A DNA stretch of 64,000 bases from an uncultured virus (IMG/VR IMGVR_UViG_3300035071_000047) (lineage: Duplodnaviria; Heunggongvirae; Uroviricota; Caudoviricetes). The stretch's first letter is position 1; every line of letters begins with the position of its first letter. The translations under genes and the position numbers were made by a program. Below the pieces are notes generated by a model. It saw only the letters and a program-made list of their open reading frames with translations, was not told where the DNA came from and made no database searches. Shown one piece after another: positions 1 through 58,225 of the stretch. The DNA lies in the IMG/VR virus record IMGVR_UViG_3300035071_000047; one strand, 5' to 3'.

Positions 1-1044
1 GTCGGGCGGCAGCTCGACGTGCTCGACGACACCCTCCTCGTTGATCGTCGTGAGCACGCGGGTGCCGGTCGGGGTGACGCGCCAGCCGACGTTCACCGCG
101 AGGCGCCCAGTTCCACAGGTGTGGACCGCGCCGTCGTCGGGCAGGTCGACGGTCAGGACCGCGTACCACTCATCCTCATGCGACCCGATCCTCCGCAGCG
201 CGACCGCCGCCTCCTTCAGGATGGCGCCCGGTGGCAGCGGGCGGTGCATGACCATCGGCCACGACGCCCACACGGGTGCCTTCTTCGGCCCCTGCGACCC
301 GACGCGCAGGTGCAGGACGGTCCGCATGGCCTGCCGCCGGCTCGCACCGGGCGCACGCGGCCCACCGCCCTTGTCGAGCCACGCGCGCTCGTCCACGGGG
401 TCGATCCGGATCTGCGAGTCGGACCCGAAGATCTTCTCGACGGGTAGACCTCCCTGGATCTGCACGCCGACGCGCCCCTCGCCGCTCCAGCGGGAGAAGT
501 GGGGATCGGACGGGTCGGCACCCTCGTAGAGCGGCATCTTGCTCGCCTGCTCCGCGGCGGCCTCGACGAGCAGGTACGTCCCCCAGGCCCCCGCGTGCGG
601 CCCCTGGCTCCCAAGGCCGCTGTAGGCGCGCGCGCTGCGCCGCAGGTCGGCCGCCCTCTGCGCGATCTCGTCGCGCGCCGCCACGATCGTCGGATCTTCG
701 CGGAGCTTGTGGCGCGCCTCCTGGAGCTGGCGGCGCGCCGCGGACCGCGCCGCGCGCGCGGCGGCGAGCGCGGACCTCATCTCCTGCGACTCCGACCGAG
801 ACCGCGTCTTGGCGCGTGTCTTGAGGACGACCTGCAGCGCGACGTTCATCGCCGCGTCGGCCGCCTCGTAGGCGGCGAGCAGAGCGGGGACGTCGCCCGC
901 GGAGCTCTCGGCCAACCGGACGGCCGCGCGGCGACCGCGCTCGATCTCGATCAGGGTGTTGTAGTAGCGATGCGCGAGCCTCATCTGCTCGCGGACGAGC
1001 GTCGTGTTCGGGGCCAGTAGGCCGTATCGATAGACTCGAATCAT
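1..1044 (-). CDS. cas12m: Cas12m-like (type V-M / V-U1, TnpB-derived) CRISPR effector, N-terminal 348 codons; 3' end lies outside the window
   Basis: Hand translation (absent from the ORF track): MIRVYRYGLLAPNTTLVREQMRLAHRYYNTLIEIERGRR... long Ala/Arg helical hairpin ...AWGTYLLVE...FSRWSGEGRVGVQIQGG...LHLRVGS...PVWASWPMVMHRPLPPGAILKEAAVALRRIGSHEEWYAVLTVD...GRLAVNVGWR. This follows the Cas12m motif order as recalled (EQLWLAH, YWASFN, RFDGSGTIAVQLQ, VHRWLP, VALHLGWR). AAGGAG RBS at 1056-1051; alternative ATG at 1050. Adjacent to a repeat array. Confidence 0.85.
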   Translation of the reverse strand, partial: MIRVYRYGLLAPNTTLVREQMRLAHRYYNTLIEIERGRRAAVRLAESSAGDVPALLAAYEAADAAMNVALQVVLKTRAKTRSRSESQEMRSALAAARAARSAARRQLQEARHKLREDPTIVAARDEIAQRAADLRRSARAYSGLGSQGPHAGAWGTYLLVEAAAEQASKMPLYEGADPSDPHFSRWSGEGRVGVQIQGGLPVEKIFGSDSQIRIDPVDERAWLDKGGGPRAPGASRRQAMRTVLHLRVGSQGPKKAPVWASWPMVMHRPLPPGAILKEAAVALRRIGSHEDEWYAVLTVDLPDDGAVHTCGTGRLAVNVGWRVTPTGTRVLTTINEEGVVEHVELPPD

Positions 1045-1069
1045 GATCATCTCCTTATGTATGCGTCTC

Positions 1070-1314
1070 GTCGAGACATTTCAAACCGTCTCGATGGTTC
1101 TAGAGGACATCGTCCCACGTCGAGATACCAAAACCGTCTCGCTAGTTCTGCGACCGCGTCCATGAGTCGAGACATCCAAACCGTCTCGCTGGTTCTGTAA
1201 CTGGTTCAGGCATTCCTGCGCGCCTGGAACTTGTCGAGACTATCAAACCGTTTCGCTAGTTCTGAGAGCCTTGCACTGGACGGGTCGATACGCCCAAACC
1301 GTATCGCTGGTTCT
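1070..1314 (-). CRISPR. Degenerate CRISPR mini-array: 5 repeats (31-32 nt) and 4 spacers (17, 16, 36, 20 nt)
   Basis: Repeats at 1070-1101, 1119-1149, 1166-1196, 1233-1263, 1284-1314. Minus-strand consensus AGAACYAGCGAGACGGTTTGNNNGTCTCGAC has a CGAGAC/GTCTCG stem followed by 3' AC, like Cas12m repeats. Spacers are unique. Confidence 0.88.
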
Positions 1315-2120
1315 TACTCCTCGAATGGGTCCACCTTCAAGCTATCGACCATCTTGTCGAACTCCGTCGGGTCATTCTCGACGACGACGAATCGTCGCCC
1401 TAGCTTGCGGGCCGCGTGCGCCGTCGTTCCCGAGCCGGCGAACGGGTCGAGGACCCACTCGCCAGGATCCGTGTGCACCTCGATCGGCACCTCCATGAGC
1501 CGCTGCGGCTTCTGGTTCACGTGCGTCTTGCCGCGCAGGATCTCCGTCACGTCGGTCCACACGTTCGTGCGGCGCAGGAACTCGCTCTTGGCAGGATGCT
1601 CAGGATCGTAGCCGGCGTAGCCACGCTTCTCATCGAGCAACGGGACCGTAAACTTGCGCGGCTTCTTGTGGTCGCCAAGAACGAGGTACGCGAGCTCCTC
1701 GCGCGTGAAGAGGTAGCCCCACTGGATGCCGTACGCGCGCTTCTTCTTCCACGTGATGGGCGTCGACAGTGCGTAGCCCGTCTGCAGCTCGACCTCGACG
1801 AGGTAGCGGAGGAACGGTCGAAACGGAGGTGTCTTGCCGTCGCGCGGCAGACCGACGCCTCCCCAGCAGTACAGGGCCGATCCAGGGAGGCTCATGTCCT
1901 GGATACGCTGAGTCCAGTTGATCATCCACGCGCAAAACTGCCGGTCGTCGACGTCGATCCGGTCCCACGTCTCGTCAACGATGTTGCCATACGGTGGGTC
2001 CGCGATCACGAGCGGGAGCGGTCCGGCAGTGTCGGAGACGAGTCGCAGGACGTCCGGGTCGGGAAACGCTCCACGGATGGCGATCCCGTCGCCGAAGGAC
2101 ACGCGCATCGGGCTAGTCAC
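1314..2120 (-). CDS. DNA methyltransferase, N6-adenine/N4-cytosine (beta class)
   Basis: IADPPYG catalytic motif precedes HVNQKP and VLDPFAGSGTT (SAM-binding). Confidence 0.9.
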   Translation of the reverse strand: MTSPMRVSFGDGIAIRGAFPDPDVLRLVSDTAGPLPLVIADPPYGNIVDETWDRIDVDDRQFCAWMINWTQRIQDMSLPGSALYCWGGVGLPRDGKTPPFRPFLRYLVEVELQTGYALSTPITWKKKRAYGIQWGYLFTREELAYLVLGDHKKPRKFTVPLLDEKRGYAGYDPEHPAKSEFLRRTNVWTDVTEILRGKTHVNQKPQRLMEVPIEVHTDPGEWVLDPFAGSGTTAHAARKLGRRFVVVENDPTEFDKMVDSLKVDPFEE

Positions 2121-2337
2121 GGCGCTTCGGCTCCAGCGTCGTCCACCACGCGTGCCCGCAGTCGAGGCACGTCATGTTGGTGAGCGTGACGACGTGGTAG
2201 CCGCGACGGACGCGGCGCTTCGACTCGCGCTGCGGCGCGTTCGGGACGACGCGACACCCGAGAATCGACGAAGTCTTGCCATATTGGCCGCGCCGACACT
2301 TCGGGCATTTGGTGGCGATGGGACGACCGGTGGTCAC
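2113..2337 (-). CDS. Small zinc-ribbon protein
   Basis: CPKC...CLDCGH; overlaps neighbouring genes. Confidence 0.55.
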   Translation of the reverse strand: MTTGRPIATKCPKCRRGQYGKTSSILGCRVVPNAPQRESKRRVRRGYHVVTLTNMTCLDCGHAWWTTLEPKRRD

Positions 2338-2557
2338 GCGTACCTCGACGCGCGCGACCAGTCCACCGTGCGCCTGCGGCGGCGGAGTAGCTCCGGGTGC
2401 TCGCCCGGTATCCAGAAGAGACCGATCGATCTAAACCCGCTTCCGCTCAGGAACGCGCGAGCCTCCTCGAGATCTCGGAAGCGCGGCTTGCCGTTTGGTC
2501 GGGTCGCCCACGCGCCGGCGGGACACCAAGTCGATCGTCTCGCGGGTCGACGGGTCG

Positions 2558-2884
2558 TCACGACTTCACCGGATCCGGTAACTTGAGCACCCTGCGTATC
2601 GCGGGCTCGTCCTTCAGTTCGAGCGCCAGCGCGGCCTGGTCCTCCGCGTCGACCGTCTCGTCGAACTCGCCGTCGATGACGCGCGCGGCGACGGTGTTGA
2701 GCGAGGCGTCGCGAAGCGCGTCGACGAGGGCGCATTTTGGTGCGGCGTGCTCGCTCTTGAAGTCGTGGAACTCCCCGGCGCGGGCGCGATCGCAGATCGA
2801 CCGGATTTTGTAGACCTTGGTGGCGCCGCACGACGGGAGGAGTGCCTCCAGCTCGGCGACGAGGTCGGTGCGCGTGTCCTTCAC
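2558..2884 (-). CDS. Hypothetical phage protein
   Basis: GTG start overlapping the upstream stop; normal composition (GEFHDFKS...IDGEFDET). Confidence 0.6.
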   Translation of the reverse strand: MKDTRTDLVAELEALLPSCGATKVYKIRSICDRARAGEFHDFKSEHAAPKCALVDALRDASLNTVAARVIDGEFDETVDAEDQAALALELKDEPAIRRVLKLPDPVKS

Positions 2885-3156
2885 CTGCACTCCTTGATCT
2901 GTTTGAGGATCGCCGCGATCGCCGGGTGCTCGTCGCTCGGTAGCGCGGCGCCGCCCTTGTACCTGACGGCCACCACGCGGCACCGGACCAGGATGTCGAT
3001 CATCTCGTCGATGTCGCCGACCGACGTCGCGATCGGGAAGGAGTCGTCGCCGATGACGACCGTGACGTCCGCCTCGCGCTTGTCGCCGCAGGACAGGGAG
3101 ACCTCGAGCTCGCCGTCGTCGGTCTCCCACTCGGTGTGAAAGTCGGGGCGGATCAC
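2881..3156 (-). CDS. Hypothetical protein
   Basis: Coupled ORF, MIRPDFHTEWETDDG. Confidence 0.55.
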   Translation of the reverse strand: MIRPDFHTEWETDDGELEVSLSCGDKREADVTVVIGDDSFPIATSVGDIDEMIDILVRCRVVAVRYKGGAALPSDEHPAIAAILKQIKECR

Positions 3157-3710
3157 CAGTGCTCCCGCCCCCAGTCGCCGAGCCGCTCGTCCATCTGCGC
3201 CTCGGTCTCCGGGTTGAGATGGTGACCCTCTACCATCGTCAGGTAGAACTCGCGCCATCGCTTCCTGAAGCGCTCGTCGGGATGCTTGAATCCGAGGATC
3301 TGCGCGCCGTGCATCAGGTGGTTCAGGTAGTGCGAGGCGAGCTCGTCGCGGTTGTCCATGAATCGCTTCACGGCTTCCGCCCACTGCGCGTCGTCGGCGA
3401 AGACGTCGAGGCTCATGAACGTGTCGGCGCGCTCGCCCCACTCGAGCAGGCGGCCATACTTGCCGGCTAGGAACACGCACGCGCGGTAGGCGATGCAGAT
3501 CGGCTTGCACGCGTGGTGCTTCGCGACGCCGTCCGGCCCTCGAGCACCGAGGAACAGAACGCTCTGCTGTTGCAGCGGTAGAGCGATGCACCACGCAGGC
3601 TGGACGGAGACGGCGCGACTCGTCGCGGACGGCAGAGCGCCGGGTCGGTCCGGGTCCACGCCGGGGCAGACCAGGATCATCGGGATCGGAGTCGTCTCGG
3701 TGGTCGTCAC
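3153..3710 (-). CDS. Hypothetical phage protein
   Basis: Motif-rich ORF (QQSVLFLGARGPDG, HLMHGAQILGFKHP, HLNPETEAQMDERLGD); GGAGG RBS. Confidence 0.7.
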   Translation of the reverse strand: MTTTETTPIPMILVCPGVDPDRPGALPSATSRAVSVQPAWCIALPLQQQSVLFLGARGPDGVAKHHACKPICIAYRACVFLAGKYGRLLEWGERADTFMSLDVFADDAQWAEAVKRFMDNRDELASHYLNHLMHGAQILGFKHPDERFRKRWREFYLTMVEGHHLNPETEAQMDERLGDWGREHW

Positions 3711-3981
3711 GACCCCTCCATCTTCTTGAGGTAGAGGATCTCGGACGTGACGAGCCCGGCGAACGCGAACCACGGGTTCGTCCTCTCGTCGTCGGTTGAC
3801 TTTTGGAGGAGCCGGTGGAGGCTCTTGAACGCGCCGTCGAAGTCGCCCTTCAGGATGTCGCGGCAGATCATCTTGGGGACTGCCGTCCCAGTCCCGTTCG
3901 CCGTGTCGATCTGTCCGCCGGCGACGGCGATGCGCATGATGGCGTCCCACCGTCGGTCTACCGCGTGGTCGTCCGCGACCT

Positions 3982-4524
3982 TCACGACCCGCCCCGCTTT
4001 GCCGTGCAGGTGTCCGCGGCCGCATCGAGCCCATCGCGCACGACCTGCTTGATCAGCGCGATCGCGGCGCGCTCGTCGCCGCCTCGACTCATGTTCATGT
4101 GGACGAGCGTCGCGACGCGTAGCGCGCGTTCGTCGTCGGTGGTAGCGGGGACGCCCGACTGGGCGTCGACGAAAGCGCCAGCAGCGGCGCCGCGAAGCGA
4201 TATTTTGGCCATGGTCTCCTCCTGGAACACGCATCCTCGATCGAATCGGTGGGCGGCGCGCGTGCGACGGCACGCGACGCAGAGGTCTTGGAGTGGCGAT
4301 CGGTTTCTCCACGGGCAGGCGCACACGTCGTCTGCCTCGGGGTCCGGGTCGAGCGGCTTGTAGCAACCGTACGCGTCGCGGCCGATCCCGCCATCTCCGA
4401 AGCAGATCGGCGTGTCCCAGTGCATGAGACCGCGCTCCTTGAGGCAGTACCCGCACCCGCACTCGCACGAGCCGCCGTACTCGCAGCTCCCGTGAGTGCC
4501 GTTGCAGTGGAAACCATTGCCCAT
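3982..4524 (-). CDS. Cys-rich hypothetical protein; possible internal start at 4212
   Basis: Many CxC/CxxC motifs in the N-half; GGAGGAG RBS before the in-frame ATG at 4212. Confidence 0.45.
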   Translation of the reverse strand: MGNGFHCNGTHGSCEYGGSCECGCGYCLKERGLMHWDTPICFGDGGIGRDAYGCYKPLDPDPEADDVCACPWRNRSPLQDLCVACRRTRAAHRFDRGCVFQEETMAKISLRGAAAGAFVDAQSGVPATTDDERALRVATLVHMNMSRGGDERAAIALIKQVVRDGLDAAADTCTAKRGGS

Positions 4525-4536
4525 TCTCAGCGATCC

Positions 4537-4845
4537 TCAGCTTCGCGACGCCGCTATCCTGCGACCGACGGCCAGCTCGACCGAGATGACCATCGGGGTT
4601 CCGCAGATCGGACACGGCCTGTCGGCGCAGACGTCGACGCGCTCCTTCGCTACACAGTTATCCACGCGTTCCTCCGCCTTCCAGTATCGCTGAAGCGCCT
4701 TCAGGTGTCGTTCGCTCATCTCCTCAGCACTCTTCCTCTTCTCACGCTCGCGTTGCCACTGGAGTATAAAATAGGTAACAGCGAGTGTGGACGCGACGAA
4801 CCACACCATCAGCATGATCCCGGCGATTGTAGTGATCTGGATCAT
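4537..4845 (-). CDS. Membrane-anchored protein with CPICG motif (paralog of 5316-5642)
   Basis: N-terminal hydrophobic helix; PCPICGTPM. Confidence 0.6.
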   Translation of the reverse strand: MIQITTIAGIMLMVWFVASTLAVTYFILQWQREREKRKSAEEMSERHLKALQRYWKAEERVDNCVAKERVDVCADRPCPICGTPMVISVELAVGRRIAASRS

Positions 4846-5312
4846 AACGGCTTTCCGCTCGGGTGCCCCGCGTTCCACGCGCGCACGAAGTTGTCCGCGA
4901 TCTCTCTGACCGACTTTGTGATCGCGTCGAGATCGTCGCCGCGATGTCTGCCGACGCGAACGAGCAAGCTGTAGTAGCGCCGCTTCGTGACGGCCATCTC
5001 GGGCCGGAAGTCAGCCGGCCCGTCGCCGAAATCGATCGCCTCGCCGACCTCGTAGGGGAGGCTCACCAGCAACGGGTCGACGTCTCCACACTTGGCGACC
5101 TGTTCGACGAGCTGCAGGGCGGCCACGAGGAACACGCGGCAAAATCTCCTGCGATCTGCGACCGCCGTCGCCACGGACGGGATCTCTTCCTCCGTCGTCG
5201 ACACGACGAAGCTCGCTGTCGGCGACCCGTCCGTGAATCGCACGAAGAGTTTCATTGGCGTATCGACGCCCGCTACGGCCCCGCGAAGAGTGATTTCTTT
5301 GGCCACGATCAT
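4842..5312 (-). CDS. Hypothetical protein
   Basis: Coupled ORF in the operon. Confidence 0.55.
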   Translation of the reverse strand: MIVAKEITLRGAVAGVDTPMKLFVRFTDGSPTASFVVSTTEEEIPSVATAVADRRRFCRVFLVAALQLVEQVAKCGDVDPLLVSLPYEVGEAIDFGDGPADFRPEMAVTKRRYYSLLVRVGRHRGDDLDAITKSVREIADNFVRAWNAGHPSGKPL

Positions 5313-5315
5313 CTC

Positions 5316-5642
5316 CTACTTCTTGCTCGACTCGGTCGCGTCCCGCGGTGGTGTCATGACGATCGCGACCAATGTTCTGCGCCTGCGCACGGCAAGGTCG
5401 ACGGCGAAGTCCATCGGCGTTCCGCAGATCGGGCACGGCTGGTCGGAGGAGGGAGCACCTACGGCCTGTCGTCGACGCGCGTCGCTTCGACTTTCTTCAT
5501 CTCGGTACGACTGGACCGCCTCCTCGGCGTCCTGTCGCCGTCTACGCTCATCCAGCCATGCGAAGAGTAGGATGGTGGCGACGATCGTCGCGACAACGAG
5601 CCAGATCTGAATGAGGATCGCGTCGGCGACGGTGAGTGTCAC
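5316..5642 (-). CDS. Membrane-anchored protein with CPICG motif (paralog of 4537-4845)
   Basis: N-terminal hydrophobic helix; PCPICGTPM. Confidence 0.6.
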   Translation of the reverse strand: MTLTVADAILIQIWLVVATIVATILLFAWLDERRRRQDAEEAVQSYRDEESRSDARRRQAVGAPSSDQPCPICGTPMDFAVDLAVRRRRTLVAIVMTPPRDATESSKK

Positions 5643-6235
5643 AGCGCCTCCCCACTCTCTCGGTCGAAGGCGCGGCGAACTAGATGCGTGAGCAGCTTCC
5701 AGCTCTCCTGGCTCCCGTCGTATCGGAAGACGCGTCCGTGGTGGCGCGAGCCACCATCGGCGAAACTCGTGTTCCACGGCTGCGCGACGCAGACGACGAG
5801 GCCGTTCGGGCGCTTCGTGAGCCACGGTAGGAAGTACTCGGGCCAGTCGTCGACGAGGACGCGGCCGTACATGATCGACTTGTCCTGCGTGACGGTGACC
5901 GGCGTGCCCGGCAGGTGCGTCTGCGCCCACTGCAGCTTCTCGCCCCACGCGCTCGGGGCACCCGCGGGCCCTTTGGTCAGCACCATGAGGGAGAAGCCGA
6001 CCGTCTTGAGGTGGTGCGCGACGGTCATCCCGAGCGGGTGCTCGGGCAGGTCGCGCCAGAAGCCGGGGACCTGCTGGATCAGCTTCCGTCGGGCCGTCAC
6101 GTACGATGGCTCGTCGTCGCGATCGTAGGGTGACTCGATCGGCGCGCGGATGAAGGCGAGTCGCTCGCGCATGCCGCGGTCGTAGTCGACGACGGTGCCG
6201 TCCAGGTCGATGAGGGCGATCTTGTCGGTGTCCAT
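5639..6235 (-). CDS. HAD-superfamily 5'(3')-deoxyribonucleotidase-like protein
   Basis: LIDLDGTVVD motif I, GFWRDL, EKLQW, DKS...VLVDD, QPWN. Confidence 0.8.
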   Translation of the reverse strand: MDTDKIALIDLDGTVVDYDRGMRERLAFIRAPIESPYDRDDEPSYVTARRKLIQQVPGFWRDLPEHPLGMTVAHHLKTVGFSLMVLTKGPAGAPSAWGEKLQWAQTHLPGTPVTVTQDKSIMYGRVLVDDWPEYFLPWLTKRPNGLVVCVAQPWNTSFADGGSRHHGRVFRYDGSQESWKLLTHLVRRAFDRESGEAL

Positions 6236-6447
6236 CGTTCGCTACTTCTCCGGATTCGGCGTACTGGGCCAATCGTACGTCTTGCCGTCCATCTTCAGTC
6301 CGATCAGCTCCGTCGATCCCATCCCGACCGCAAACATGACAGCGAAGCGCGCGTACGCGAGCGCGTCATCGTGGTTGTCGCCGTCGAATTTGTCGCCGTA
6401 GGCGAGGCAGAAGAGCACGCGCTCACGCGGATCGGTCGGGAGCGGTC

Positions 6448-6669
6448 TCATGGGCCCACTCCACTTCCGCCGCACGTCGGGCACGGGTGTCGCTTCTTGA
6501 ACGCGAGGACGAGCTCGGCGCGCGAGTGGACGCCGAGCTTCGTGTACGCGCGACGCAGGAGCGTTCGCGTCGTGGCATAGGCGATGCCCAGCTCCGCGGC
6601 CATCTCCTTGTCGGTCTTGGCTTGCTGTAAGAGGCGGACCAGGTCGAGCTCGCGCGGCGTGAGCTTCAC
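6448..6669 (-). CDS. LuxR-type HTH regulator with C-terminal CxxC
   Basis: LTPRELDLVRLLQQAKTDKEMAAELGIAYATTRTLLRRAYTKLGVHSRAEL. Confidence 0.85.
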   Translation of the reverse strand: MKLTPRELDLVRLLQQAKTDKEMAAELGIAYATTRTLLRRAYTKLGVHSRAELVLAFKKRHPCPTCGGSGVGP

Positions 6670-7370
6670 GGCGTCCTCACGTACGGCTTGCACCGCTCGA
6701 GGACGTCGCGCACGAGGGCCAGATCGAATCGGTCGTTGTCGTCCCGGACGCCGCTCTCCATGTCGATCCAGGTGACGTGGTCGTGACGTACGCTCTTGAT
6801 GAGCGATTCGACGGTGGATGGTCTGATCCCGCCCGCGAACCCCATGCTCACGTCACGCGCGGGCCAGCTCGTTGGATAGACGGCCTCGATGCCACGGCCG
6901 GCGGACGCATCGAGGAGGATGGACGCGCGTCCACCTCCGGCTTGGATCGCACGGACGTCCTGCGCGGCGATCTCGAGCAGGGCCTCCTCGCGGACTTGAA
7001 GGATGAACTCGAAGAAGCGTATCCAGCGAGGCGCGATCGCCACGAGTCCGAGAGCGGGCGGCGCGTAGCCGTTCACCTGGACGCGTTGGAACGGGACGCG
7101 TCCCGTGACTCCGGCGCGATTGACCTGGAGCATCAGGTAGTCGTCGCGCCCGTTGAGCGTGCCGCGCGCGCTCGCACCGCAGAGGTGAAGCGACGTTCGC
7201 ATCTCCGGCAGCGAGTCGATCCACTCCTGGCTCGGGTAGCGCGGCGTCCCGTGTCGCTTCTCGGAGTAGAGGATCCCCCACTCGACGAACGGGAACGCGT
7301 GAGTCAGCGCGAGGAGCGAGTTTGGGTCGACGCGGTCGTCGGCGCCGGAGATGGTGACGCGGGAGATCAT
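6666..7370 (-). CDS. TIM-barrel protein of phosphoribosylanthranilate isomerase-like type seen in large phages
   Basis: VTISGAD, FPFVEWGIL, RYPS, SLHLCG, LLDASAGRG, GFAGGI, WIDMESGVR. Confidence 0.75.
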   Translation of the reverse strand: MISRVTISGADDRVDPNSLLALTHAFPFVEWGILYSEKRHGTPRYPSQEWIDSLPEMRTSLHLCGASARGTLNGRDDYLMLQVNRAGVTGRVPFQRVQVNGYAPPALGLVAIAPRWIRFFEFILQVREEALLEIAAQDVRAIQAGGGRASILLDASAGRGIEAVYPTSWPARDVSMGFAGGIRPSTVESLIKSVRHDHVTWIDMESGVRDDNDRFDLALVRDVLERCKPYVRTP

Positions 7371-7999
7371 TCGCCGACCACTTCGTGCGAGATCGGTTCA
7401 CCGTGCTCGTTCTTCGGGTGCGACGGATCGGTCGCGTGTGCGCCGCAGAGCGCGCTCGGGAAAGTCTCGCCCGCGCCGACCTCCCACGTGATGGCTCGGT
7501 CGCGGCAGTCGAGCTTGAAGCACGTCGGGAACAGGTCTGGCCTCAGCGGAGACGGCTTCGCCCACTGGAGCGAGCCGTGCGGCGACGTGCCCGGATACAT
7601 GCTTCTGATCGAGATGTTGACCTGTTTTCCAAACATAGGCTCCACCATCTCCGTGACGATGTTATCGAGTTCATCGAAGTCGCCTCGCGACGAAACGTCG
7701 GGATTGCTCAGCGCCGTTCGGATCCTGGATTCGTACGACTTCCACTTTTCCACGATCTGCTGCGCGTCGTCGCGGGCCTCCACGATCGACATGAGCTCCC
7801 GGAACCTGGATCCCATGCTGTGGTTCGGACCGCAGGCGGCGATGCGGACCTGGCGGCCGAGCGCGCGCCACTGAGTCTCGCCTGTCTTGAGTCGATCGAT
7901 CTCGGCGAGCAGCTCCTGAGCTTCGTGGCCGCGGAGGTCGCCGTACGCAGCCTGCTTCCGGAGGCTCGCGAGACGTTCGTCAGAGATTCGTTCTTTCAC
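7367..7999 (-). CDS. Hypothetical protein
   Basis: GGAGG RBS and GTG start; coupled to neighbours. Confidence 0.55.
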   Translation of the reverse strand: MKERISDERLASLRKQAAYGDLRGHEAQELLAEIDRLKTGETQWRALGRQVRIAACGPNHSMGSRFRELMSIVEARDDAQQIVEKWKSYESRIRTALSNPDVSSRGDFDELDNIVTEMVEPMFGKQVNISIRSMYPGTSPHGSLQWAKPSPLRPDLFPTCFKLDCRDRAITWEVGAGETFPSALCGAHATDPSHPKNEHGEPISHEVVGE

Positions 8000-8216
8000 C
8001 GCGCACCTCCCACGTAGCGACCAACCGGCTTGCGCCGGTACTGGCTCTTCTCGTGCGTCGCGGCCCTGGCGTGCCCGAGATCCACAAGTGCATCGTCGAG
8101 CGCGACGCAGAGCGCCGACCCCGGGCGCACGTAACGCGTCAGCAGGTTGTCGATCGACGACATCACGCACTCGATCTCGGCCTGCGCGAAGTCACGCGAC
8201 GATCGCTTGGACATCG

Positions 8217-8528: not shown

Positions 8529-8876
8529 TTATGCCTCCTTGCGCGCTCTGCGTAGGACCTTCAGGTCGTACTCATCGAGTCCGGCGGCCTTCAGCTCGTC
8601 GATCGTGATACCGGCGGATTTGAGGACCTCGATCACAAGGCTAGCTCGGTCGATACGTCGCTGAGACTCGGCGAGCGCGACGGCGAACCCGCACATCCAC
8701 TCGGCTTTGCACTTTTCGGCAACTTCGACGTCGACGCGCAGACGCTCACTGCGCTGCCCTCGATGGTACGCGTTGATCTCCGCGCGCGTCGTGAACGGCG
8801 TCGACAGGTGGCGGTGGCAGAACCGCTTGCCGACGACGTGTCCGTCGTCGCAGCCGGGGTAGTCGCAGCCGTTCAT
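8529..8876 (-). CDS. Hypothetical protein
   Basis: CDYPGC...FCHRH at the N-terminus; coupled ORF. Confidence 0.55.
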   Translation of the reverse strand: MNGCDYPGCDDGHVVGKRFCHRHLSTPFTTRAEINAYHRGQRSERLRVDVEVAEKCKAEWMCGFAVALAESQRRIDRASLVIEVLKSAGITIDELKAAGLDEYDLKVLRRARKEA

Positions 8877-12082: not shown

Positions 12083-13087
12083 ATGCGAACCGACGACCTC
12101 GACCCCACTCCGACCCCGCTCTCCGGGGCCCTCGTTGCCCCCTCGGGGGTGGGGTCCGAGCTCATTTCGCGACCTCGGCGCGACCCCAATCGAAATCCAG
12201 CGACGATCTTCATCGCCACGCGGCTCTCCGAGAGGAGCAAAGGGACGATGCGCGAGGCCCTCGAGCGCATCGCGAAGGTCCTCGAGCTCCCGATGACGCC
12301 CGAGGAGATCCCGTGGGAGACCTTCGGGTTCGAGCGTACGAGCTTCGTTCGTAGCCGACTCCTCGCCGCGTACGGCCCCTCCACGGTCAAGCTGACGCTC
12401 TCCGCTCTTAAAGGAGTGCTCCGAACCGCCCGGCGGCTCGAGCTCATCAACCACGAGCAGTTCGCGAATGCGACCGACTGGGAGAAGGTCAGGGGGAGCC
12501 GGTTGTCGCGTGGACGCGCGCTCTCGAGCGAGGAGATCGCAAAATTACTCGCGTTCTGCCGATCGCAGGCCGATCCCTACGGCGCGTTCCTCACGGCGCT
12601 CTTCTCGACCCTGATCGGGCTCGGTCTGCGCGCCAGCGAGACCTGCCAGCTCACCCTCGGCGCCTACGACGCGGACGCGCGTGTCCTGCGCGTCCTGCGC
12701 AAGGGAAACAAGGAGGTCGAGCTCGCCGTCACCGAGGAGGCCGCGGCGATCGACCGCTGGCTCGTCGTGCGCAAGACGCTCAACGTGAGCACACAGTGGC
12801 TGTTTTTGCGGCCGATGAAGGACGGCGGCCTGCGCGTGGTCCCCCCGAACGTGAAGGGCCTCCAGTACCTCTGCCAAGAGGTCGCGACCGGGGCCGACAT
12901 CAAGAAATTCAGCCCTCACGACTGCCGGCGGACGTTCGGGACGCGGCTCCTCGACCAGGGGATCGACCTGTCGACGGTGCAGCGCCTCATGAGTCACGAG
13001 AGCCCCGACACGACGGTCAGGTACGACAAACGGCAGGCGAAGACGGATGCCGAGACGCGCGCGCGAGTGAGGGTGCTCGGGTCATGA
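12083..13087 (+). CDS. Tyrosine recombinase/integrase (XerC/Cre-like)
   Basis: GLRASE (R), RKGNK (K), SPHDCRRTF (HxxR), MSHESPDTTVRYD (H, Y). Confidence 0.93.
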   Translation: MRTDDLDPTPTPLSGALVAPSGVGSELISRPRRDPNRNPATIFIATRLSERSKGTMREALERIAKVLELPMTPEEIPWETFGFERTSFVRSRLLAAYGPSTVKLTLSALKGVLRTARRLELINHEQFANATDWEKVRGSRLSRGRALSSEEIAKLLAFCRSQADPYGAFLTALFSTLIGLGLRASETCQLTLGAYDADARVLRVLRKGNKEVELAVTEEAAAIDRWLVVRKTLNVSTQWLFLRPMKDGGLRVVPPNVKGLQYLCQEVATGADIKKFSPHDCRRTFGTRLLDQGIDLSTVQRLMSHESPDTTVRYDKRQAKTDAETRARVRVLGS

Positions 13088-18678: not shown

Positions 18679-19491
18679 ATGGTTTGGAAGCCTAAGTCTG
18701 CACGTTTTCAACAGGTCCAGCAGCTCCAGGAGCGGTACGCGTGCGCGGTCGACGCCCGCGCCGCCGCCGACGCCGTCCGCGGGGTGACCACGGCGCGCGC
18801 GACGCGCCAGCGGGTCGCGAAGGACTGCCGGTGCTCGAGGTGCCGTCCGCCCGCGTGCGCCGCCCTCGAGACGGTCCCCGCGGACCAGGCGATCGCCCTC
18901 GAACTGGCCAGACGGACGGAGAAATTTGGGCACTGCTGGTTCTGCGGCGCGGAGTTCGACGGCTTCGCGGACCGCCCCGATCACCTGCTGCTCCCCCGCG
19001 CGCGGGGCGGTGTACGGGTCTCCAGCAACGTCGTGCGCGCGTGCTACCGCTGCGGTCGCGACAAGGGTGACGCGACGGTGGAGGAGTACCGGGCCGGGCT
19101 CTCGCAAGCGCGCGGAGAGTCCGTCGTTTTCGACGGAGAGCGGCGCGGTTTCTGTCCCCGCGCGCCGCACGACGGGAGCATCGCGGACCGCCCCGAGAAC
19201 GTCGCGCGGATCCGCTGGGGCGACGGCGCGAGCTCCGCACCGTCCACGTGCGAGGCGCTCGTCCCGCGCGCCGCGGTGAGCGAGGGGCCGCTCGGGTCCA
19301 CGGGTGAGACGAGCATCGCGACGCACTTTTCGCCGCGGATCCTCGCAAATGGGCGCGTGCGCGCCGCGGAGATCTGCGCCGTCGCGTGCGACGCGCCGCG
19401 CGCGCTCCCGCCGCGGATGCGGCGCCCGCGCCGTCACCTCCGCGCGGGGCGCCTGGTGCGCGCGCCGTCGTACCGCGTCCACGCTCGGTAA
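18679..19491 (+). CDS. Degenerate HNH-domain protein
   Basis: CWFCG...DHLLLPRARGG...SNVVRACYRCGRDKG...TVEEYR; the final Asn/His is replaced by Gly. Confidence 0.6.
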   Translation: MVWKPKSARFQQVQQLQERYACAVDARAAADAVRGVTTARATRQRVAKDCRCSRCRPPACAALETVPADQAIALELARRTEKFGHCWFCGAEFDGFADRPDHLLLPRARGGVRVSSNVVRACYRCGRDKGDATVEEYRAGLSQARGESVVFDGERRGFCPRAPHDGSIADRPENVARIRWGDGASSAPSTCEALVPRAAVSEGPLGSTGETSIATHFSPRILANGRVRAAEICAVACDAPRALPPRMRRPRRHLRAGRLVRAPSYRVHAR

Positions 19492-31282: not shown

Positions 31283-32500
31283 TCATCGACGACGTCCCGG
31301 CGCTCCTCGTCGACGTCATCGCGGACTGCGTCGTCCGCGAGGCGGAGGACATCTTTCGTCACCCGTTTCCACCTCCAGTCCGTGAGGCGTTCTGCGCCCA
31401 CATGGAGAAGAGGGCCGAGCACGTCTACGCGAGAAATCAGGGGTGGGCGAAGAAGATCCGCGGACGCGGCAATCGAGGGCGCGACACGCTCTACGTGTTC
31501 ATGCGCCACTGGCTCGCGGCCGAGATTCGCGCGACCTACCCAGGACTTGCTGACCGCGAGCCGATAAAATTTCGATCGTTCGCGAACGGAGAGATACCAT
31601 GATCGTCTACACCGAGATCCGGATCTCCGTCGCGCACGAGACCTACGGTGACTGTGGACCCGTGAACATCCGAGGCGACCTTCGTGCCGGCCTGTTGGCG
31701 ACCATCACGCACGGTATGCTCATCGTCGACAGCGGACGTTTGCTCGAATATCGCGCCGAGATCGACGTCGGTACGACGCGGCCGGACGGTTCGATGCCGG
31801 GGCAGCGATGAGCGCCTACCGCTCACGCATCCTCGAACGCCTGCGCGTCGAAGGACGACCCGAGATCGACCCGCGCCACGTCGAGGGCTACATGCGGCTC
31901 GACCACGCCACGCTCGACGGCATCGGCGCAGAAGAATTTGCGGACGAGGTCCGGATCGCGATCACGTGCATCGACGAGGGTGGCGCGAGGCAGGCCGAGG
32001 TCCTCGCGCGGTCGTTCGGACTGGAGAAGGCGTCGTGAGTATGAGCCGAATTCACCGCGAAGCGATCCTGTACTACGCATCGGTCGATTCGAACGATCCG
32101 AAGAAGTATGCGATACCAACCGAGCAAACCGTCCGTGATCTCGTAGAGCTTGGTCACGTGGTGATGATCTCAGCGCCTTACCCATACGCCCCGTCACACG
32201 CACACCTCACCGAGACCGGTCGTGCCATTGCCGCATGCGGCACGCACTGCCTCAACGGACTCCAGTGCGTCAAGGATTACGGTAGCTGCATCTGCCTGTG
32301 CGCCGGGTGCTCGCCATGAGTCGCGCCGTCACCGTGTCGCTCACACCCGCCGAGATCGAGGCGCTCCTCCAGGCTCTCGGCAACTCGCTGACCGGGGACC
32401 CGGACGACGAGACGGCGATCCTGGGCACCGGTACGCGCATCCGATCCGCCTACCGAGGTCAATCGAAGCTCATTCGCGCGCTCAACCAGTCGAGGTTCTC

Positions 32501-33295
32501 ATGATCCGAAAAGATCTCGTCCAGCTCGCCCACCCCTACAAGGACGCGATCGACCCCACCGGGTGGTGGGCGAGCGAGAAGCTCGACGGCGTGCGCGCGA
32601 CGTGGGACCCGCTCCGACGAAAGCTCCTGTCCCGCTACGGCAACACGTTCGAGGCGCCCGCCTGGTTCACGGAGAAGCTACCGCTGGGCCTCCCCCTGGA
32701 CGGTGAGCTCTGGCTGCGCCGCGGCGTCGGCGCGCTCCCGGAGGCCGTCTCGATCGTCAAGAGCGGCTCGCGCGACAAGGGTTGGAACCGGATCAAGTAC
32801 ATGTTGATCGACGTGCCGGACTCGCGCGTGGGCCTGTTCGAGGCGCGGCACGACCGCCTGGTCGACGCGACCCGCCGGATGCGGGCCGCGCACGTGGAGG
32901 TCATCCCGCAGACGCTCTGCCGCGGCCGCGCGCACCTCGACGCCATGATGACGGCGCTACTTCGCGAGCGCGGCGAAGGCGTCATGCTGCGCCGCGCGCT
33001 CTCTGTCCACGAGAAGGGCCGGTCGCACGACCTCCTGAAGGTGGTCCGCTTCTACACGGCCGAAGCGGTCGTCGTCGACTACTCGCCCGGCGAGGGTCGA
33101 CACGAGGGCCGCGTCGGCGCGCTCATGTGCCGGCTGTCCAACGGTGTGACGTTCGACATCGGGACCGGGCTCACGGACAGGCAGCGCGACAAGCCGCCGC
33201 GCCGAGGGTCCAAGATCACGTTCAAGTACAAGAGCAAGACGGCGGACGGCAGGCCGTACGCGGCGAGCTACGTCACGACTCGCGACTACGAATAA
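32501..33295 (+). CDS. Minimal ATP-dependent DNA ligase (NTase + OB fold)
   Basis: SEKLDGVRA (motif I), LDGELW (III), GEGVMLR (IV), LLKV (V), FDIGTGLTD...ITFKY (OB domain). Confidence 0.92.
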   Translation: MIRKDLVQLAHPYKDAIDPTGWWASEKLDGVRATWDPLRRKLLSRYGNTFEAPAWFTEKLPLGLPLDGELWLRRGVGALPEAVSIVKSGSRDKGWNRIKYMLIDVPDSRVGLFEARHDRLVDATRRMRAAHVEVIPQTLCRGRAHLDAMMTALLRERGEGVMLRRALSVHEKGRSHDLLKVVRFYTAEAVVVDYSPGEGRHEGRVGALMCRLSNGVTFDIGTGLTDRQRDKPPRRGSKITFKYKSKTADGRPYAASYVTTRDYE

Positions 33296-45758: not shown

Positions 45759-46166
45759 ATGTCATCCACGCTGAAGATCGCGTCCATCAAAAAGATCACG
45801 GCCGAGGAGGAGAAGGAGGCGTACACCGACCTCGCGCGCGCAAATTTCGAGGCCGTGTACCTGAACCTCAAGGCGCAGGGCCAGGCGTCGCCCATCGCGG
45901 CCCAAGCGAACGACCTCCTCCTGCGCGAGCTGCTCATCTTCGCCGCGGACACGGCCGCGGACGAGGGGTCCACGGAGGACCAGTTCTTGGACACGCTGAC
46001 CGAGGCGTTCGAGATCGCCAACCAGGACGACGACGAGACGGACGACGGTGAGGTGACGGACCCCGTCGCCAACATCACCAACCTGTCCGCCGTGAAGTCG
46101 CCACGCGTTCCTGGCGGACTGCCGACGGGGGAGGTGGCGACGGCCGACAACGACGAGACGGACTGA
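45759..46166 (+). CDS. Acidic hypothetical protein
   Basis: AAGGAG RBS; D/E-rich C-half. Confidence 0.7.
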   Translation: MSSTLKIASIKKITAEEEKEAYTDLARANFEAVYLNLKAQGQASPIAAQANDLLLRELLIFAADTAADEGSTEDQFLDTLTEAFEIANQDDDETDDGEVTDPVANITNLSAVKSPRVPGGLPTGEVATADNDETD

Positions 46167-47092
46167 ACACGAGGCTCTGAAGGCTCTGGGGAGAGCCGGA
46201 AACGAGGGAGACGATGATAACGATCGCGGCCATGGGCCAATGCGAGTCATGCCAAGCCGAGCGACCGATGAAGCTGCTCGTTCAGAGCTTGGGTCGGAGT
46301 GAACGACATTGCATCATTCCATTACTCTACACTTACCCGGTCCTCCCAGACGGGTGGGCCATGTCCAGCGTCCACAACCCGCGTCTCACGTGCGCCGAAT
46401 GCGCCTCCGGCGAGTGGGGACTCTGGAGCTCACAAGGCGGAGGAGGGTGGGAGAGAGATTACAATGATGCCGGCGAACCAGTCCCGCGACGCTTCGCTTC
46501 CGCGGTAGTGGCACGTCGTTTCGCGGACGCCTACCGGCCTTCACACGAAGCGCGGAAGCTCACGGCAACACCGTTGGCAAAATGAGCCCCGAGACGCTCT
46601 ACGCGCTCACGCGAGCCATGCTCGCCCAGGCCAACATCCGCATGTACGACGGGTGGCGCGTCTGCGACCCGACCTCCTCGGGACCCATCCTCGCCGCCGT
46701 CCGCGACCACGCGAAGTTCTACCGCGTCGGCGACATCGACATGTGCAATTTTTGGTCGAGAGACAAACCACTGCTGACGATCCTGTCGACCGATTTCGGG
46801 ATCGTCCGTGCCTACCGATCCAATGAACTCGACACCATCCTCGACGCCATCAAACGAACGAACGTCCACGGCGAGGTCTGTACGCTCGTTCCTGCGCCGT
46901 GGGTGTGGCCCAACGTTGCGCACCTGCCACAGCAGCCCGACATCTTCTACGCCAGAAAACTAGCCTCTGCGTGGCTCGTCTTCGGGCCAGGGCGCGGCGA
47001 TCGACGCGGTGTACTGGAGGTGATGTCATGACGTTCAAACCGTGGGCGATGAAGATCGCGGGCGTCAAACCTGTCAAACAAAAGGATCTGTC

Positions 47093-47896
47093 GTGACTGC
47101 CCGACCCTTCGTCAAGACCGTCGGAGGCAAGCGGAAGCTCGTCCCCGCCATCCGCGAGCTCGTGCCGCCCTCGTTCAACTGCTACTTCGAGCCGTTCGTC
47201 GGTGGTGGCGCCCTCTTCTTCGACCTGCTCCCGGAGCGCGCCACCCTCGTCGACCTGAACCTGAAGCTGATCGTCGTCTACCGCGAGCTGCGAGATCATC
47301 CAGAAGCGGTCATCGCGCACCTGCGGACGCTCGAGAATACACGCGAGTGTTTTGACCGAATCCGCGCGCGAAACTTCGACAGGGGGACACTCTCGGAGCG
47401 TGCGGCCGAGTACATCTTCTGCAACAAGGTCGGATTCAATGGGCTGTACCGCGAGAACCGGAGCGGCCAGTTCAACACGCCGTTCGGACGGTACGACAAT
47501 CCGACGATCTGCGACGAGGAGAACCTGCGCGCCGTCTCCGCGGCGCTCCAAGGCGTCTTCCTCTGGAGCGTCGACTTCCACGGCGTCGAGCAGCACGTGC
47601 ACGAGGACGACCTCGTCTACTTCGACCCGCCGTACGCGCCCGTATCGAAGACGAGTAACTTCGTCGGATACACGCGGTTCAGCTTCACCGACGAGGACCA
47701 GAAGAACCTCCGCGACCTCGCGCTTCGACTCAAGCGCGACCGCGGCGCGCACGTCATCCTGTCGAACAGCTGTGCGCCGATCATTCGGGAGCTGTACGCG
47801 GGTCCAGACTGGACCGTGCGCGAGGTCTCCGCCGCGCGGTCGATCAACAGTGACGCGGAGAAGCGCGGGGCCGTGACCGAGCTGCTCATCACGTGA
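47093..47896 (+). CDS. Dam/D12-class N6-adenine DNA methyltransferase
   Basis: GGKRKL...YFEPFVGGGALFF, FNGLYREN..GQFNTPFG, VYFDPPY, ILSNS, ELLI. Confidence 0.93.
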   Translation: MTARPFVKTVGGKRKLVPAIRELVPPSFNCYFEPFVGGGALFFDLLPERATLVDLNLKLIVVYRELRDHPEAVIAHLRTLENTRECFDRIRARNFDRGTLSERAAEYIFCNKVGFNGLYRENRSGQFNTPFGRYDNPTICDEENLRAVSAALQGVFLWSVDFHGVEQHVHEDDLVYFDPPYAPVSKTSNFVGYTRFSFTDEDQKNLRDLALRLKRDRGAHVILSNSCAPIIRELYAGPDWTVREVSAARSINSDAEKRGAVTELLIT

Positions 47897-50305: not shown

Positions 50306-50745
50306 GCAACGACAAAGAGACGTCCACGTCCACCATCATCCTGATGATCCTAGGAGTCGTCGGACTCCTAGGCGTCCTGACTTTCGCCGGGTGCTGGGCG
50401 GGTCCGCAGTGGGGCGTCTACGAGCAGCGTCTCGCCGGAGAGGCCGAGCTGCAGAAGGCCGAGTTCAGCAAGCGCGTCGCCGTCCAGGAGGCACAGGCAA
50501 AGAAGGACTCCGCGGTCCTGCTCGCCGAAGCCGAGGTCTCGCGCGCGGAGGGCGTCGCCCGCGCCAACAAGATCATCGGCGACAGCCTCAAGGGGAACGA
50601 GGCGTACCTGCGATACCTATGGATCCACTCCATGGAGGACACGAAGAACCAGGTGATCTACGTCCCGACGGAGACCAACCTGCCGATCCTGGAGGCCACG
50701 CGGAACACGCCCCCAGCGCCGCCGCCGGTCACCGACAAGAAGTAA
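50302..50745 (+). CDS. Small SPFH/HflK-related membrane protein
   Basis: TM helix, GEAEL..AE, RAEGVARANKIIGDSLKGNEAYLRYLWI, VIYVPTETNLPILEA. Confidence 0.75.
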   Translation: MSNDKETSTSTIILMILGVVGLLGVLTFAGCWAGPQWGVYEQRLAGEAELQKAEFSKRVAVQEAQAKKDSAVLLAEAEVSRAEGVARANKIIGDSLKGNEAYLRYLWIHSMEDTKNQVIYVPTETNLPILEATRNTPPAPPPVTDKK

Positions 50746-57569: not shown

Positions 57570-57733
57570 ATGCCCACGTACTTAGCGCTCGGTCCCGTCT
57601 GTCTTCGTCACCCGTACGCGCTGCCGCACGCAGGCCCATTCGCGTGGACATGCCTCTTCTGCAGGCGCGAGCTGGGCAACAAGAAACCAGATCAGAACGG
57701 GAATGTTCGGTACCACTCAAGACTCGAGTCGAC

Positions 57734-58225
57734 GTGAGCCTCAACTCCATCCAGGGCACCCTCGTGAACGTCCGCGCGCAGGCCGACGACGCGCAGAGCC
57801 TCGTCGACGCGGGCGACAGGGAGCCCTCCGACAAATCCGCGATCGACGACTACCGCAGGGCCGCGAGCCGCGCGGACACGGTCGCCACGCTCTGCCAGAA
57901 CGTCACCGGGATCGTCGTGCAGGAGGTCCCGTCGACGGCGGGGTACGACGCGGCCGTCGCGAGCGAGGTGGACGCCGCCTCCGCGAGCGACTCCGAGGCG
58001 GGCCACGCGACCACACGAGCCGCCGCCCGCGCGGCGGCCGTCGCCGGTGTCGCCGCTGCCAGGAGCGCCATCAGCTACGCCACCGCGGCCGCGAGCAAAG
58101 TGCCCGCGACCCCGCGGGTCACCGTCGGGTGGTTCGCGGCGGCCGTCGTCGTGGTCGCCGCGGGAGCCTTCGTGTTCGCCAAGTACCGCCCGAAGAGGAC
58201 CGTGCCCCGGATAGCGTACCCATGA
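57734..58225 (+). CDS. Ala-rich protein with C-terminal membrane anchor
   Basis: GWFAAAVVVVAAGAFVFAKYRPKR. Confidence 0.6.
   Translation: MSLNSIQGTLVNVRAQADDAQSLVDAGDREPSDKSAIDDYRRAASRADTVATLCQNVTGIVVQEVPSTAGYDAAVASEVDAASASDSEAGHATTRAAARAAAVAGVAAARSAISYATAAASKVPATPRVTVGWFAAAVVVVAAGAFVFAKYRPKRTVPRIAYP

Follow-up and report, generated by a model that had tools for sequence, protein, structure and literature searches.

Diverged type V-M repeats in the leader of a cas12m gene: conserved RNA scaffolds with a possible role in autoregulation

The IMG/VR record IMGVR_UViG_3300035071_000047, assigned to an uncultured virus of the Caudoviricetes, is a soil-metagenome contig of 66.7% G+C, of which we analysed a stretch of 64,000 nucleotides (hereafter the window). 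At one end of it the minus strand carries the beginning of a gene for Cas12m, the effector of CRISPR type V-M, and directly upstream, in what should be the leader of the cas12m mRNA, five diverged repeats and four mostly short spacers. Comparative analysis reveals the kinship of effector and repeats with those of other V-M loci, the conservation of the repeat structure, the placement of the array and the recurrence of such scaffolds in the leaders of relatives. On this basis we tentatively propose, with belief and doubt nearly balanced, that the mini-array is co-transcribed with cas12m and that its transcript is bound and cut by Cas12m, yielding RNAs with short guides and probably a feedback on cas12m.

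The cas12m gene and the array in its leader

The features of this part of the window are the following (spacer lengths are given in the 36-nucleotide (nt) register of the family and, in parentheses, with a repeat of 31 nt; bit scores and E-values are those of a covariance model built from relatives).

1..1044, minus strand: N-terminal ~348 codons of cas12m, cut by the window edge (frame open 1050..1)
1045..1069, minus strand: leader after the last scaffold, 25 nt up to the likely cas12m start, where a spacer would sit
1070..1106, minus strand: repeat 1, last of the scaffolds, with an extra base in the loop and T for G before the stem; descriptor score 0
1107..1118, minus strand: spacer 1, 12 nt (17)
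1119..1154, minus strand: repeat 2; family 5' tail GTCGC retained, top stem pair gone; 22.9 bits, E 0.0096
1155..1165, minus strand: spacer 2, 11 nt (16); chance-level partial matches only
1166..1201, minus strand: repeat 3, nearest to a canonical repeat; 23.2 bits, E 0.0084, top match in the window
1202..1232, minus strand: spacer 3, 31 nt (36), the sole spacer of ordinary length
1233..1268, minus strand: repeat 4; stem with an A-C mismatch, pseudoknot with a C-to-U change leaving a G-U pair; 14.7 bits, E 0.51
1269..1283, minus strand: spacer 4, 15 nt (20)
1284..1319, minus strand: repeat 5; stem CGATAC/GTATCG, compensated on both sides; descriptor score 0
1314..2120, minus strand: DNA methylase gene (N6_N4_Mtase; Pfam PF01555, E 2.3e-24; PHROG DNA methyltransferase families)

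By its relatives, the truncated gene is a cas12m of type V-M. The N-terminal 350 residues within the window, which are the part that could be compared, match Cas12m structures of the PDB in a phmmer search (23vw, E 1.8e-21; 8pm4, E 2.8e-12; Cas12m2, 8hio/8hhl, E 5e-9), and 2407 library representatives match at E <=0.001, the best being 54% identical and their length about 600-650 amino acids; no Pfam family matched the frame. Alignments to relatives start at residue 3-6 of this open reading frame (ORF) and AAGGAG stands 6 nt before the second ATG, so that ATG 1044 is the likely start. His269 and Arg270 are invariant in 25 relatives, and the equivalent residues of Cas12m2 read the last base of the repeat (PMC10442227). 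The RuvC-I position is occupied by Asn320 (LAVNVGWR), the second and third RuvC residues lying beyond the window edge; of 99 N-terminal sequences, 63 have D here, 16 have N and 3 have H. An altered or inactivated RuvC triad, with the variants DED, HDD and NDD, is a feature of type V-M, and the Asn found here fits a binding-only enzyme (PMC11013384; PMC10691335). No Cas1, Cas2 or Cas4 family was found among the 66 ORFs of the window scanned with Pfam, the locus running past the window; V-M loci are reported to be devoid of adaptation genes (PMC10691335), and the type is also characterized by the lack of a tracrRNA.

A repeat search detected five direct repeats at 1070-1319 on the minus strand, with start-to-start distances of 48, 47, 67 and 51 nt. 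The degenerate repeat pattern has five matches in the window, all within 1070-1314, and none in 100 shuffles. No two of the five repeats are identical. The blocks AGAAC, GGTTT and TCGAC are unchanged in all of them, and the 3' half of the loop varies from copy to copy (GGGC, GATA, GGAT, TGGT, GAAAT). A first-pass annotation, made from the letters of the window, had already described five diverged repeats without an identical pair, with these invariant blocks and this variable half-loop, and both observations are upheld by the repeat search, the pattern match and the copy alignment. The spacer lengths that it gave (17, 16, 36 and 20 nt) hold with a 31-nt repeat but become 12, 11, 31 and 15 nt in the family register. 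The array, which it expected standard CRISPR finders to miss, is picked up in part by Tandem Repeats Finder (1070-1197, period 47, 2.7 copies).

It is the position upstream of the effector, in the leader, that is the unusual part of this array, and it is absent from the first-pass annotation. The array extends from the stop codon of the methylase gene to 25 nt before ATG 1044, thus filling the gap up to the ribosome-binding site of cas12m. Positions 4-6 of repeat 5, within its 5' tail, are the methylase stop codon TAA (1316..1314), and the Shine-Dalgarno sequence AAGGAG (1056..1051), 6 nt before the second ATG, occupies 'guide' positions 14-19 behind repeat 1. Between 900 and 2600 there is no terminator-like site on the minus strand, the sole such site being on the plus strand, and no sigma-70-like promoter was found in a scan of the same region. 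Since the array fills the whole gap between methylase and cas12m with neither kind of site in between, methylase, array and cas12m should most simply form one transcript, of which the array would be part of the cas12m leader.

Conservation of the scaffold and its recurrence in leaders

The loci of relatives were fetched from genomic (7), metagenomic (the best 80 of 297) and viral (26) sequences. Their arrays lie downstream of cas12m, on the same strand, and consist of 36-nt repeats ending in GAC. Twenty of these repeats align without gaps and show covariation in a stem of 6 base pairs (bp) and a pseudoknot of 4 bp: 81% of the pair cells hold a pair as compared with 55.6% in shuffles (0 of 500 reach the observed value) and 34-44% in slid controls, and 9 of the 10 pairs have changed on both sides. 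Such an architecture of stem and pseudoknot has been solved for the repeat of Cas12m2 (PMC10442227). The window repeats share the family register, with the pseudoknot GAACC/GGUUU, the stem CGAGAC/GUCUCG, a G before the stem and the terminal AC, and these scaffold elements correspond to the invariant blocks mentioned above. Building a covariance model of the repeat was one of the checks proposed in the first-pass annotation; the model, built from relatives only and run over 128 kb, ranks repeat 3 first, repeat 2 second and repeat 4 sixth. A descriptor composed of the stem, a loop of 8-11 nt, the pseudoknot and AC is satisfied by all five repeats, and Rfam returned no family at E <=1. The model also gave a lone weak match on the plus strand at 8632-8667 (17.8 bits, E 0.11), ending in GAGAC and situated among minus-strand genes, which is probably due to chance.

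Among the five copies, standard pairs occupy 53 of 55 pair cells. The arms of the pseudoknot are paired in 25 of 25 cells, including two copies in which a C-to-U change leaves a G-U pair. Pair 17-32 is GC in three copies, UA in one and unpaired in one; the UA copy is repeat 5, whose double change from CGAGAC/GTCTCG to CGATAC/GTATCG had been noticed in the first-pass annotation and does preserve the pair, although with only five copies a single compensated pair is not significant alone (100 of 500 shuffles reach it). In pairwise comparisons, 66 of 94 cells (~70%) differ in the 5' tail and the 3' half of the loop versus 25 of 270 (9%) in the scaffold, and all 10 free columns vary as compared with 5 of 27 scaffold columns (Fisher p 8.6e-6), the two classes having been drawn after the data were seen. 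Independently of this division, the 5' tail of the repeat is disordered in the Cas12m2 structure (PMC10442227). The contrast in divergence weighs more than the compensated pair, and together they argue for selection on RNA structure, as the first-pass annotation had suggested. The argument extends to the whole family: in 263 diverged copies from 28 non-redundant loci, picked by identity alone, 178 stem pairs have changed on both sides (137 of them still paired) versus 65 expected if the sides were independent, and 87 pseudoknot pairs have done so (56 still paired) versus 36.5 expected. Selection on RNA structure is thus supported across type V-M. The five window repeats would be old copies that have drifted in the 5' tail and the 3' half of the loop while retaining the pseudoknot arms, the 6-bp stem and the 3' GAC; sequence and covariation are those of a Cas12m scaffold in each copy, and each presumably still binds Cas12m.

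In one relative (L028), repeats of 36 nt stand back to back without any spacer in the downstream array (3750-3990), forming scaffold-only units. The stems of these units have changed on both sides (CGCGCG, CCCGCG, TCTCGC and TTTCGC, with matching 3' arms).

Scaffolds in the leader are not peculiar to the window. Elements resembling the scaffold, with their end 10-60 nt ahead of the start codon, occur in nine of 82 non-redundant relatives, about eight times the 1.09 expected. In 7 of 40 loci (5 distinct: L028/L029, L047/L048, L050, L066 and L098), a copy of the locus's own downstream repeat occurs within 450 nt upstream, versus none in the reverse-complement control. A scan for clusters found upstream mini-arrays directly before the gene in L019, L050 and L066, the background being 7 clusters per 428 kb on the opposite strand. 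The layout of L019, L028, L050 and L066 is that of the window: the stop codon of an unrelated gene is followed by diverged repeats, with short spacers between them, and these by a ribosome-binding site and the ATG. A shared upstream gene was not recognized, no Pfam family being found upstream in L019, L050 and L066. Compensated changes occur in these leader copies as well, with three stem pairs changed on both sides in that of L028 and two compensated copies in L050. Next to homologous effectors, where the first-pass annotation looked for conservation, the two nearest relatives have no such array, and the layout recurs in these four loci.

In one of the nearest relatives (L008:1483-1510), a perfect 9-bp hairpin (CTCGAAAAC..GTTTTCGAG) stands about 30 nt before the start, where a V-M scaffold would be.

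Relatives in viral contigs were found by an alignment search (26 loci) and not by a search with a single protein. These 26 contigs (L088-L113) encode Cas12m relatives, most of them with downstream arrays; a 2026 preprint claims its myxophage Cas12m as the first in a phage.

Guides, feedback and competing explanations

Cas12m cuts its own pre-crRNA (precursor CRISPR RNA) within the repeat (PMC11013384). For PmCas12m, the reported cuts fall behind nt 2-3 of the repeat and at nt 17-18 of the guide, giving a mature RNA of ~33 + 17 nt, with an optimum guide of 17 nt (10.64898/2026.03.26.714355). If the leader mini-array were handled in this way, Cas12m would cut the transcript before each scaffold and trim it behind, releasing crRNA-like RNAs of ~46-52 nt with guides of ~13-18 nt. 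The last scaffold would remain on the cas12m mRNA with the ribosome-binding site in the place of the guide. Guide positions 17-18 behind repeat 1 fall inside AAGGAG; as the Shine-Dalgarno sequence spans guide positions 14-19, occupancy of the scaffold, or a cut at 17-18 as in PmCas12m, would block translation. Free Cas12m that occupies or cuts its own leader would then damp its own synthesis, and plentiful ordinary crRNAs would relieve the damping. The common denominator in other loci may be a bulky protein or a processing site near the initiation region. The short guides may also direct the binding-only Cas12m (Asn at RuvC-I) to fixed targets, none of which was found in the window, the related loci, or the phage, plasmid and viral-contig searches described below. 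It is tempting to speculate that a cut in the repeat like that of PmCas12m would sever the methylase mRNA just before its stop codon. A more elaborate version, in which the scaffolds form a cis operator by which free Cas12m stops its own production, with relief through crRNA load, the cuts release short-guide RNAs, the outputs of methylase, guides and effector may be tied together, and the whole arrangement recurs in about one in ten V-M loci, is doubtful at present.

Several observations weigh against feedback through the leader array. Repeats 5 and 1 were not listed at E <=10 by the covariance model of relatives; the division of repeat positions into free and scaffold is post hoc; and the fold of the region as a whole (311 nt) is not superior to that of shuffles (z 0.51). 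Repeat 1, on which the leader idea depends, lacks the G whose counterpart in Cas12m2 pairs with A(-2). Upstream repeats are absent from the nearest relatives, L008 and L017 (47% and 60% identity), an adjacent upstream cluster occurs in 0 of 26 viral loci, and in a quick tree the four cluster-bearing loci require at least three origins. Elsewhere, 9-43 nt separate the scaffold from the ribosome-binding site behind it, so that direct occlusion or cutting of the latter is not general. Moreover, as one scaffold would suffice for feedback, the presence of five needs a further reason. Finally, transcription, processing and feedback of the leader array are steps that we infer from sequence.

The first-pass annotation read the array as a fixed guide cassette: four hard-wired guides would send the binding-only Cas12m to DNA of the host or of rival elements for silencing, and the position beside the gene would serve co-expression only. 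We regard this as possible but not likely. It accords with the selection that has kept every scaffold, with Asn at RuvC-I and with the silencing by binding known for Cas12m (PMC11013384; PMC10442227). The spacers are mutually unrelated, as real spacers would be rather than duplicated filler: their similarity to one another is at the level of shuffles (188 and 173 of 500 reach it), so that an origin by duplication found no support in the window, and weak support in L050 (21 of 500 shuffles). Furthermore, the unit lengths (47, 48 and 51 nt) come close to that of a single mature crRNA, given the ~33 + 17 nt of PmCas12m and the ~50 nt of mature Cas12m crRNA (10.64898/2026.03.26.714355). The suggestion that the spacers have shrunk to the length needed for binding is in keeping with these unit sizes and with the 17-nt guides in use, but not with two spacers of only 11 and 12 nt. 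Cas12m2 needs a 17-bp duplex for a full R-loop, 12 bp corresponding to an intermediate state (PMC10442227), and spacers 1 and 2, with 12 and 11 nt, fall short of this; two guides come to just ~13-15 nt in the family register even if the first bases of the next repeat are counted. Well-kept scaffolds with short or absent spacers between them in relatives, such as the back-to-back repeats of L028, also speak against guides as the object of selection, since scaffolds have there been kept even without guides.

Targets were sought and none was found. As the first-pass annotation had noted by eye, the spacers have no match elsewhere in the window: each of the four occurs there once at <=3 mismatches, chance-level hits aside. 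A search with seeds gave at best 10 of 11 nt, at scattered sites and none by the operon; one seed match (45774-45789) is flanked by T-rich sequence but mismatched at position 2. In 113 related loci, also at <=3 mismatches, spacers 4 and 3 had no match, while spacer 2 had 28 hits and spacer 1 two, with 2 mismatches at best and none seen beside the start of a cas gene. The searches of sequence collections covered spacers 3 and 4; the shorter spacers 1 and 2, for which matches by chance would prevail in such collections, were compared within the window and the related loci. Spacer 3 matched phage and plasmid records with a best E of 0.4, and neither a 22-nt word of spacer 3 nor the 20-nt spacer 4 matched viral contigs. 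The targets anticipated in the first-pass annotation thus failed to appear above chance in any of these sets, which is weak evidence either way as the host genome lay outside the searches. An inverted repeat of 76% identity links spacer 3 with the methylase gene (1213-1237 / 1556-1580); as a target it would pair at 14 of 20 guide positions with mismatches in the seed, and we take it as chance. Spacer 3 itself (1202-1232, minus strand) contains an inverted repeat CAGGC...GCCTG with a 10-nt loop, followed by AAC, a faint likeness to a decayed scaffold; the scaffold descriptor gave no match to it.

The soil samples suggest another source of guides. The stretch is contained in three soil-metagenome runs (X1-X3), and there was no RNA run among the public runs. 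In X1 and X2 alike, contigs end inside repeat 3 and then re-enter it (1-1193 and 1168-4361). Other contigs return to the repeat after other letters, the inserts measuring 3-40 letters, most of them 27-40, among the 12 inserts listed; there are at least 10 different inserts across X1-X3, and several start with the four letters still needed for a full 36-nt repeat. The depth of the repeat-bearing contigs is close to that of the window's contigs, as follows.

Run X1: repeat-bearing contigs 10.4, window's contigs 8-9
Run X2: repeat-bearing contigs about 15, window's contigs 15
Run X3: repeat-bearing contigs 4.5-6.5, window's contigs 4-6

Since copies of the repeat are separated by other letters at about the depth of the window, the same genome probably contains an ordinary array with this repeat, by analogy downstream of cas12m. 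Alternatively, these copies could come from an expanded allele or from another genome. The repeat was not found in viral contigs or metagenome contigs, one scan of viral contigs having used a pattern that fits repeat 1 only. With an ordinary array present, the mini-array would not be the system's sole source of guides. Of the fixed guide cassette, then, the selection on structure stands, and the missing targets, the nearest relatives without array and the probable ordinary array count against the rest.

A decaying remnant, that is, an old array stranded by cas12m and eroding through deletions and point changes with no present role, appears rather unlikely to us. V-M arrays commonly include short spacers and degenerate repeats: among 180 spacers of 24 non-redundant relatives, 123 measure 30-42 nt (mode 36-37 nt) and 33 measure <=22 nt, so that short spacers are a recurrent minority feature, often beside degenerate repeats and often at the far end of the array. 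V-M loci are reported to lack the adaptation genes (PMC10691335), the nearest relatives have no array, and repeats 2 and 4 have one unpaired stem position each, all of which would suit decay. However, divergence near saturation at the free positions (70%) and 9% at scaffold positions, two intact pseudoknot arms in all five copies and the family-wide excess of compensated changes speak against erosion, as do the tight fit between stop codon and ribosome-binding site that recurs in L019, L028, L050 and L066 and the frequency of leader scaffolds at about eight times chance.

Further observations concern other V-M arrays. A viral Cas12m locus (L102:5389-5790) has 7 repeats with 6 spacers of exactly 25 nt each, beside stretches with 36-nt spacers. 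In L050:3672-3795 and L006:5142-5285, identical repeat-spacer units, and hence spacers, occur twice in tandem, which suggests that arrays of this type without adaptation genes grow by unit duplication.

It is improbable that the mini-array acts as a repressor of the CreR type, its guide pairing in part with the promoter of the cas12m operon so that Cas12m represses its own transcription at the DNA level: degenerate mini-CRISPRs beside effector genes do act so in other types (10.1101/2023.03.10.532045) and repeat-like sequences are reported upstream of cas12a in about half of the V-A loci (10.1101/2023.03.03.530964), but PAM-proximal (protospacer-adjacent motif) guide matches elsewhere in the window reach at most 10 of 11 nt with none by the operon, no sigma-70-like promoter was seen in 900-2600, and a binding-only effector has no need of partial pairing.

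Known systems, genomic context and significance

The array resembles those of MmCas12m2, GoCas12m, MsCas12m and PmCas12m in its homologous effector, 36-nt register, 6-bp stem, pseudoknot and 3' GAC, and in sharing the strand of its gene; guides of 17 nt are in use in these systems (PMC10442227; 10.64898/2026.03.26.714355). Ordinary V-M arrays, however, lie downstream of cas12m and have identical repeats and spacers of ~36 nt, whereas that of the window is situated upstream, within the leader; its five repeats all differ, three of its spacers measure 11-15 nt and the remaining one 31 nt. Arrays are reported downstream of cas12 genes in almost all conserved associations (PMC10691335). Judged by the near-identical repeats and uniform spacers of a canonical array, the array of the window has neither, its five repeats differing and its spacers measuring 15, 31, 11 and 12 nt. 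Degenerate units that keep the handle beside an effector, the hallmark of mini-arrays of crRNA-like RNAs (crlRNAs), are on the other hand present in it.

The CreA and CreR RNAs (types I-B, I-E and V-A) and the single units upstream of cas12a likewise have degenerate repeats by the effector, preserved handle bases, short spacers and a proposed control of Cas levels (10.1101/2023.03.10.532045; 10.1101/2023.03.03.530964). They work by partly matching a PAM-bearing promoter, and no such match was found in the 64 kb of the window; because this defining match was looked for and not found, we class the array as a crRNA-like regulatory array and not as a CreR. CreA and CreR usually have one or two repeats, with only 12 mini-arrays of at least three repeats in the census reported (10.1101/2023.03.10.532045; 10.1101/2023.03.03.530964), as compared with five in the window. 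In contrast to CreA and CreR, the window scaffold would be part of the mRNA leader, which points to RNA action in cis.

Viral Cracr arrays, too, are carried by mobile elements and combine several crRNA-like units whose spacers are shortened (10.1101/2024.10.29.618823). Unlike the window array, which has its cognate effector in cis, they are described as hijacking host Cas proteins and targeting promoters of host cas or toxin genes; the coverage given for them is V-A, I-B, I-C, I-E and I-F, with V-M not included (10.1101/2024.10.29.618823). MvCas12m of myxophage MV-1 again combines Cas12m with an adjacent array in the mobile genome of a high-GC host, devoid of adaptation genes (10.64898/2026.09.14.751636). 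By its description, on which the comparison rests, its array differs in having one consensus repeat and eight spacers, with no leader mini-array mentioned.

Mini-arrays and single repeat units beside effectors of types I, II and V-A (10.1101/2023.03.03.530964), autorepression by CreR (10.1101/2023.03.10.532045) and viral multiplexed crRNA-like arrays (10.1101/2024.10.29.618823) have thus all been reported. In the texts searched, V-M comes up only as a remark in the discussion of 10.1101/2023.03.03.530964 and is absent from two supplementary files of that paper and from 10.1101/2023.03.10.532045 and 10.1101/2024.10.29.618823, although other bioRxiv supplements may list V-M loci. A literature search on Cas12m autoregulation found no such report. 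A built-in cassette of repeats next to the effector appears to be a design known for other CRISPR types and not described for V-M.

The remainder of the window is likely that of a mobile element or phage. It contains the following recognizable genes.

12083-13087, plus strand: tyrosine integrase, divergent from a 12-kb minus-strand block of small unknown genes that ends with methylase, array and cas12m
18679-19491, plus strand: HNH protein
32222-33295, plus strand: ATP-dependent DNA ligase
47042-47896, plus strand: Dam-type methylase, the second of two methylases in the window
50302-50745, plus strand: phrog_11227 'protease' (E 1e-51)
57703-59097, plus strand: sigma-70 factor

Nearly all scanned ORFs are without a family, and from 13000 to 64000 there is a long run of plus-strand ORFs almost all of which lack a Pfam or PHROG family. 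No capsid, portal or terminase was recognized among the 66 scanned ORFs, borders of an element around the integrase were not found in the window, and positions 1-8000 gave one chance-like match of 51 nt to phage records.

Autoregulation of a CRISPR effector at the RNA level by guide mimicry would, if true, extend crRNA-like regulatory RNAs from types I, II and V-A to V-M, and from control at the DNA level to control at the RNA level. The family-wide excess of compensated stem and pseudoknot changes shows that a CRISPR type devoid of adaptation genes maintains its old repeats for their RNA function and not by copying, and the compaction of the units to about the size of a mature crRNA shows which part of the spacer matters. 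Current engineering of Cas12m, a compact binding-only effector, is directed at base editing, epigenome editing and gene circuits. Guide scaffolds serving as the leader of the effector would offer a ready-made single-transcript design and possibly a self-limiting switch.

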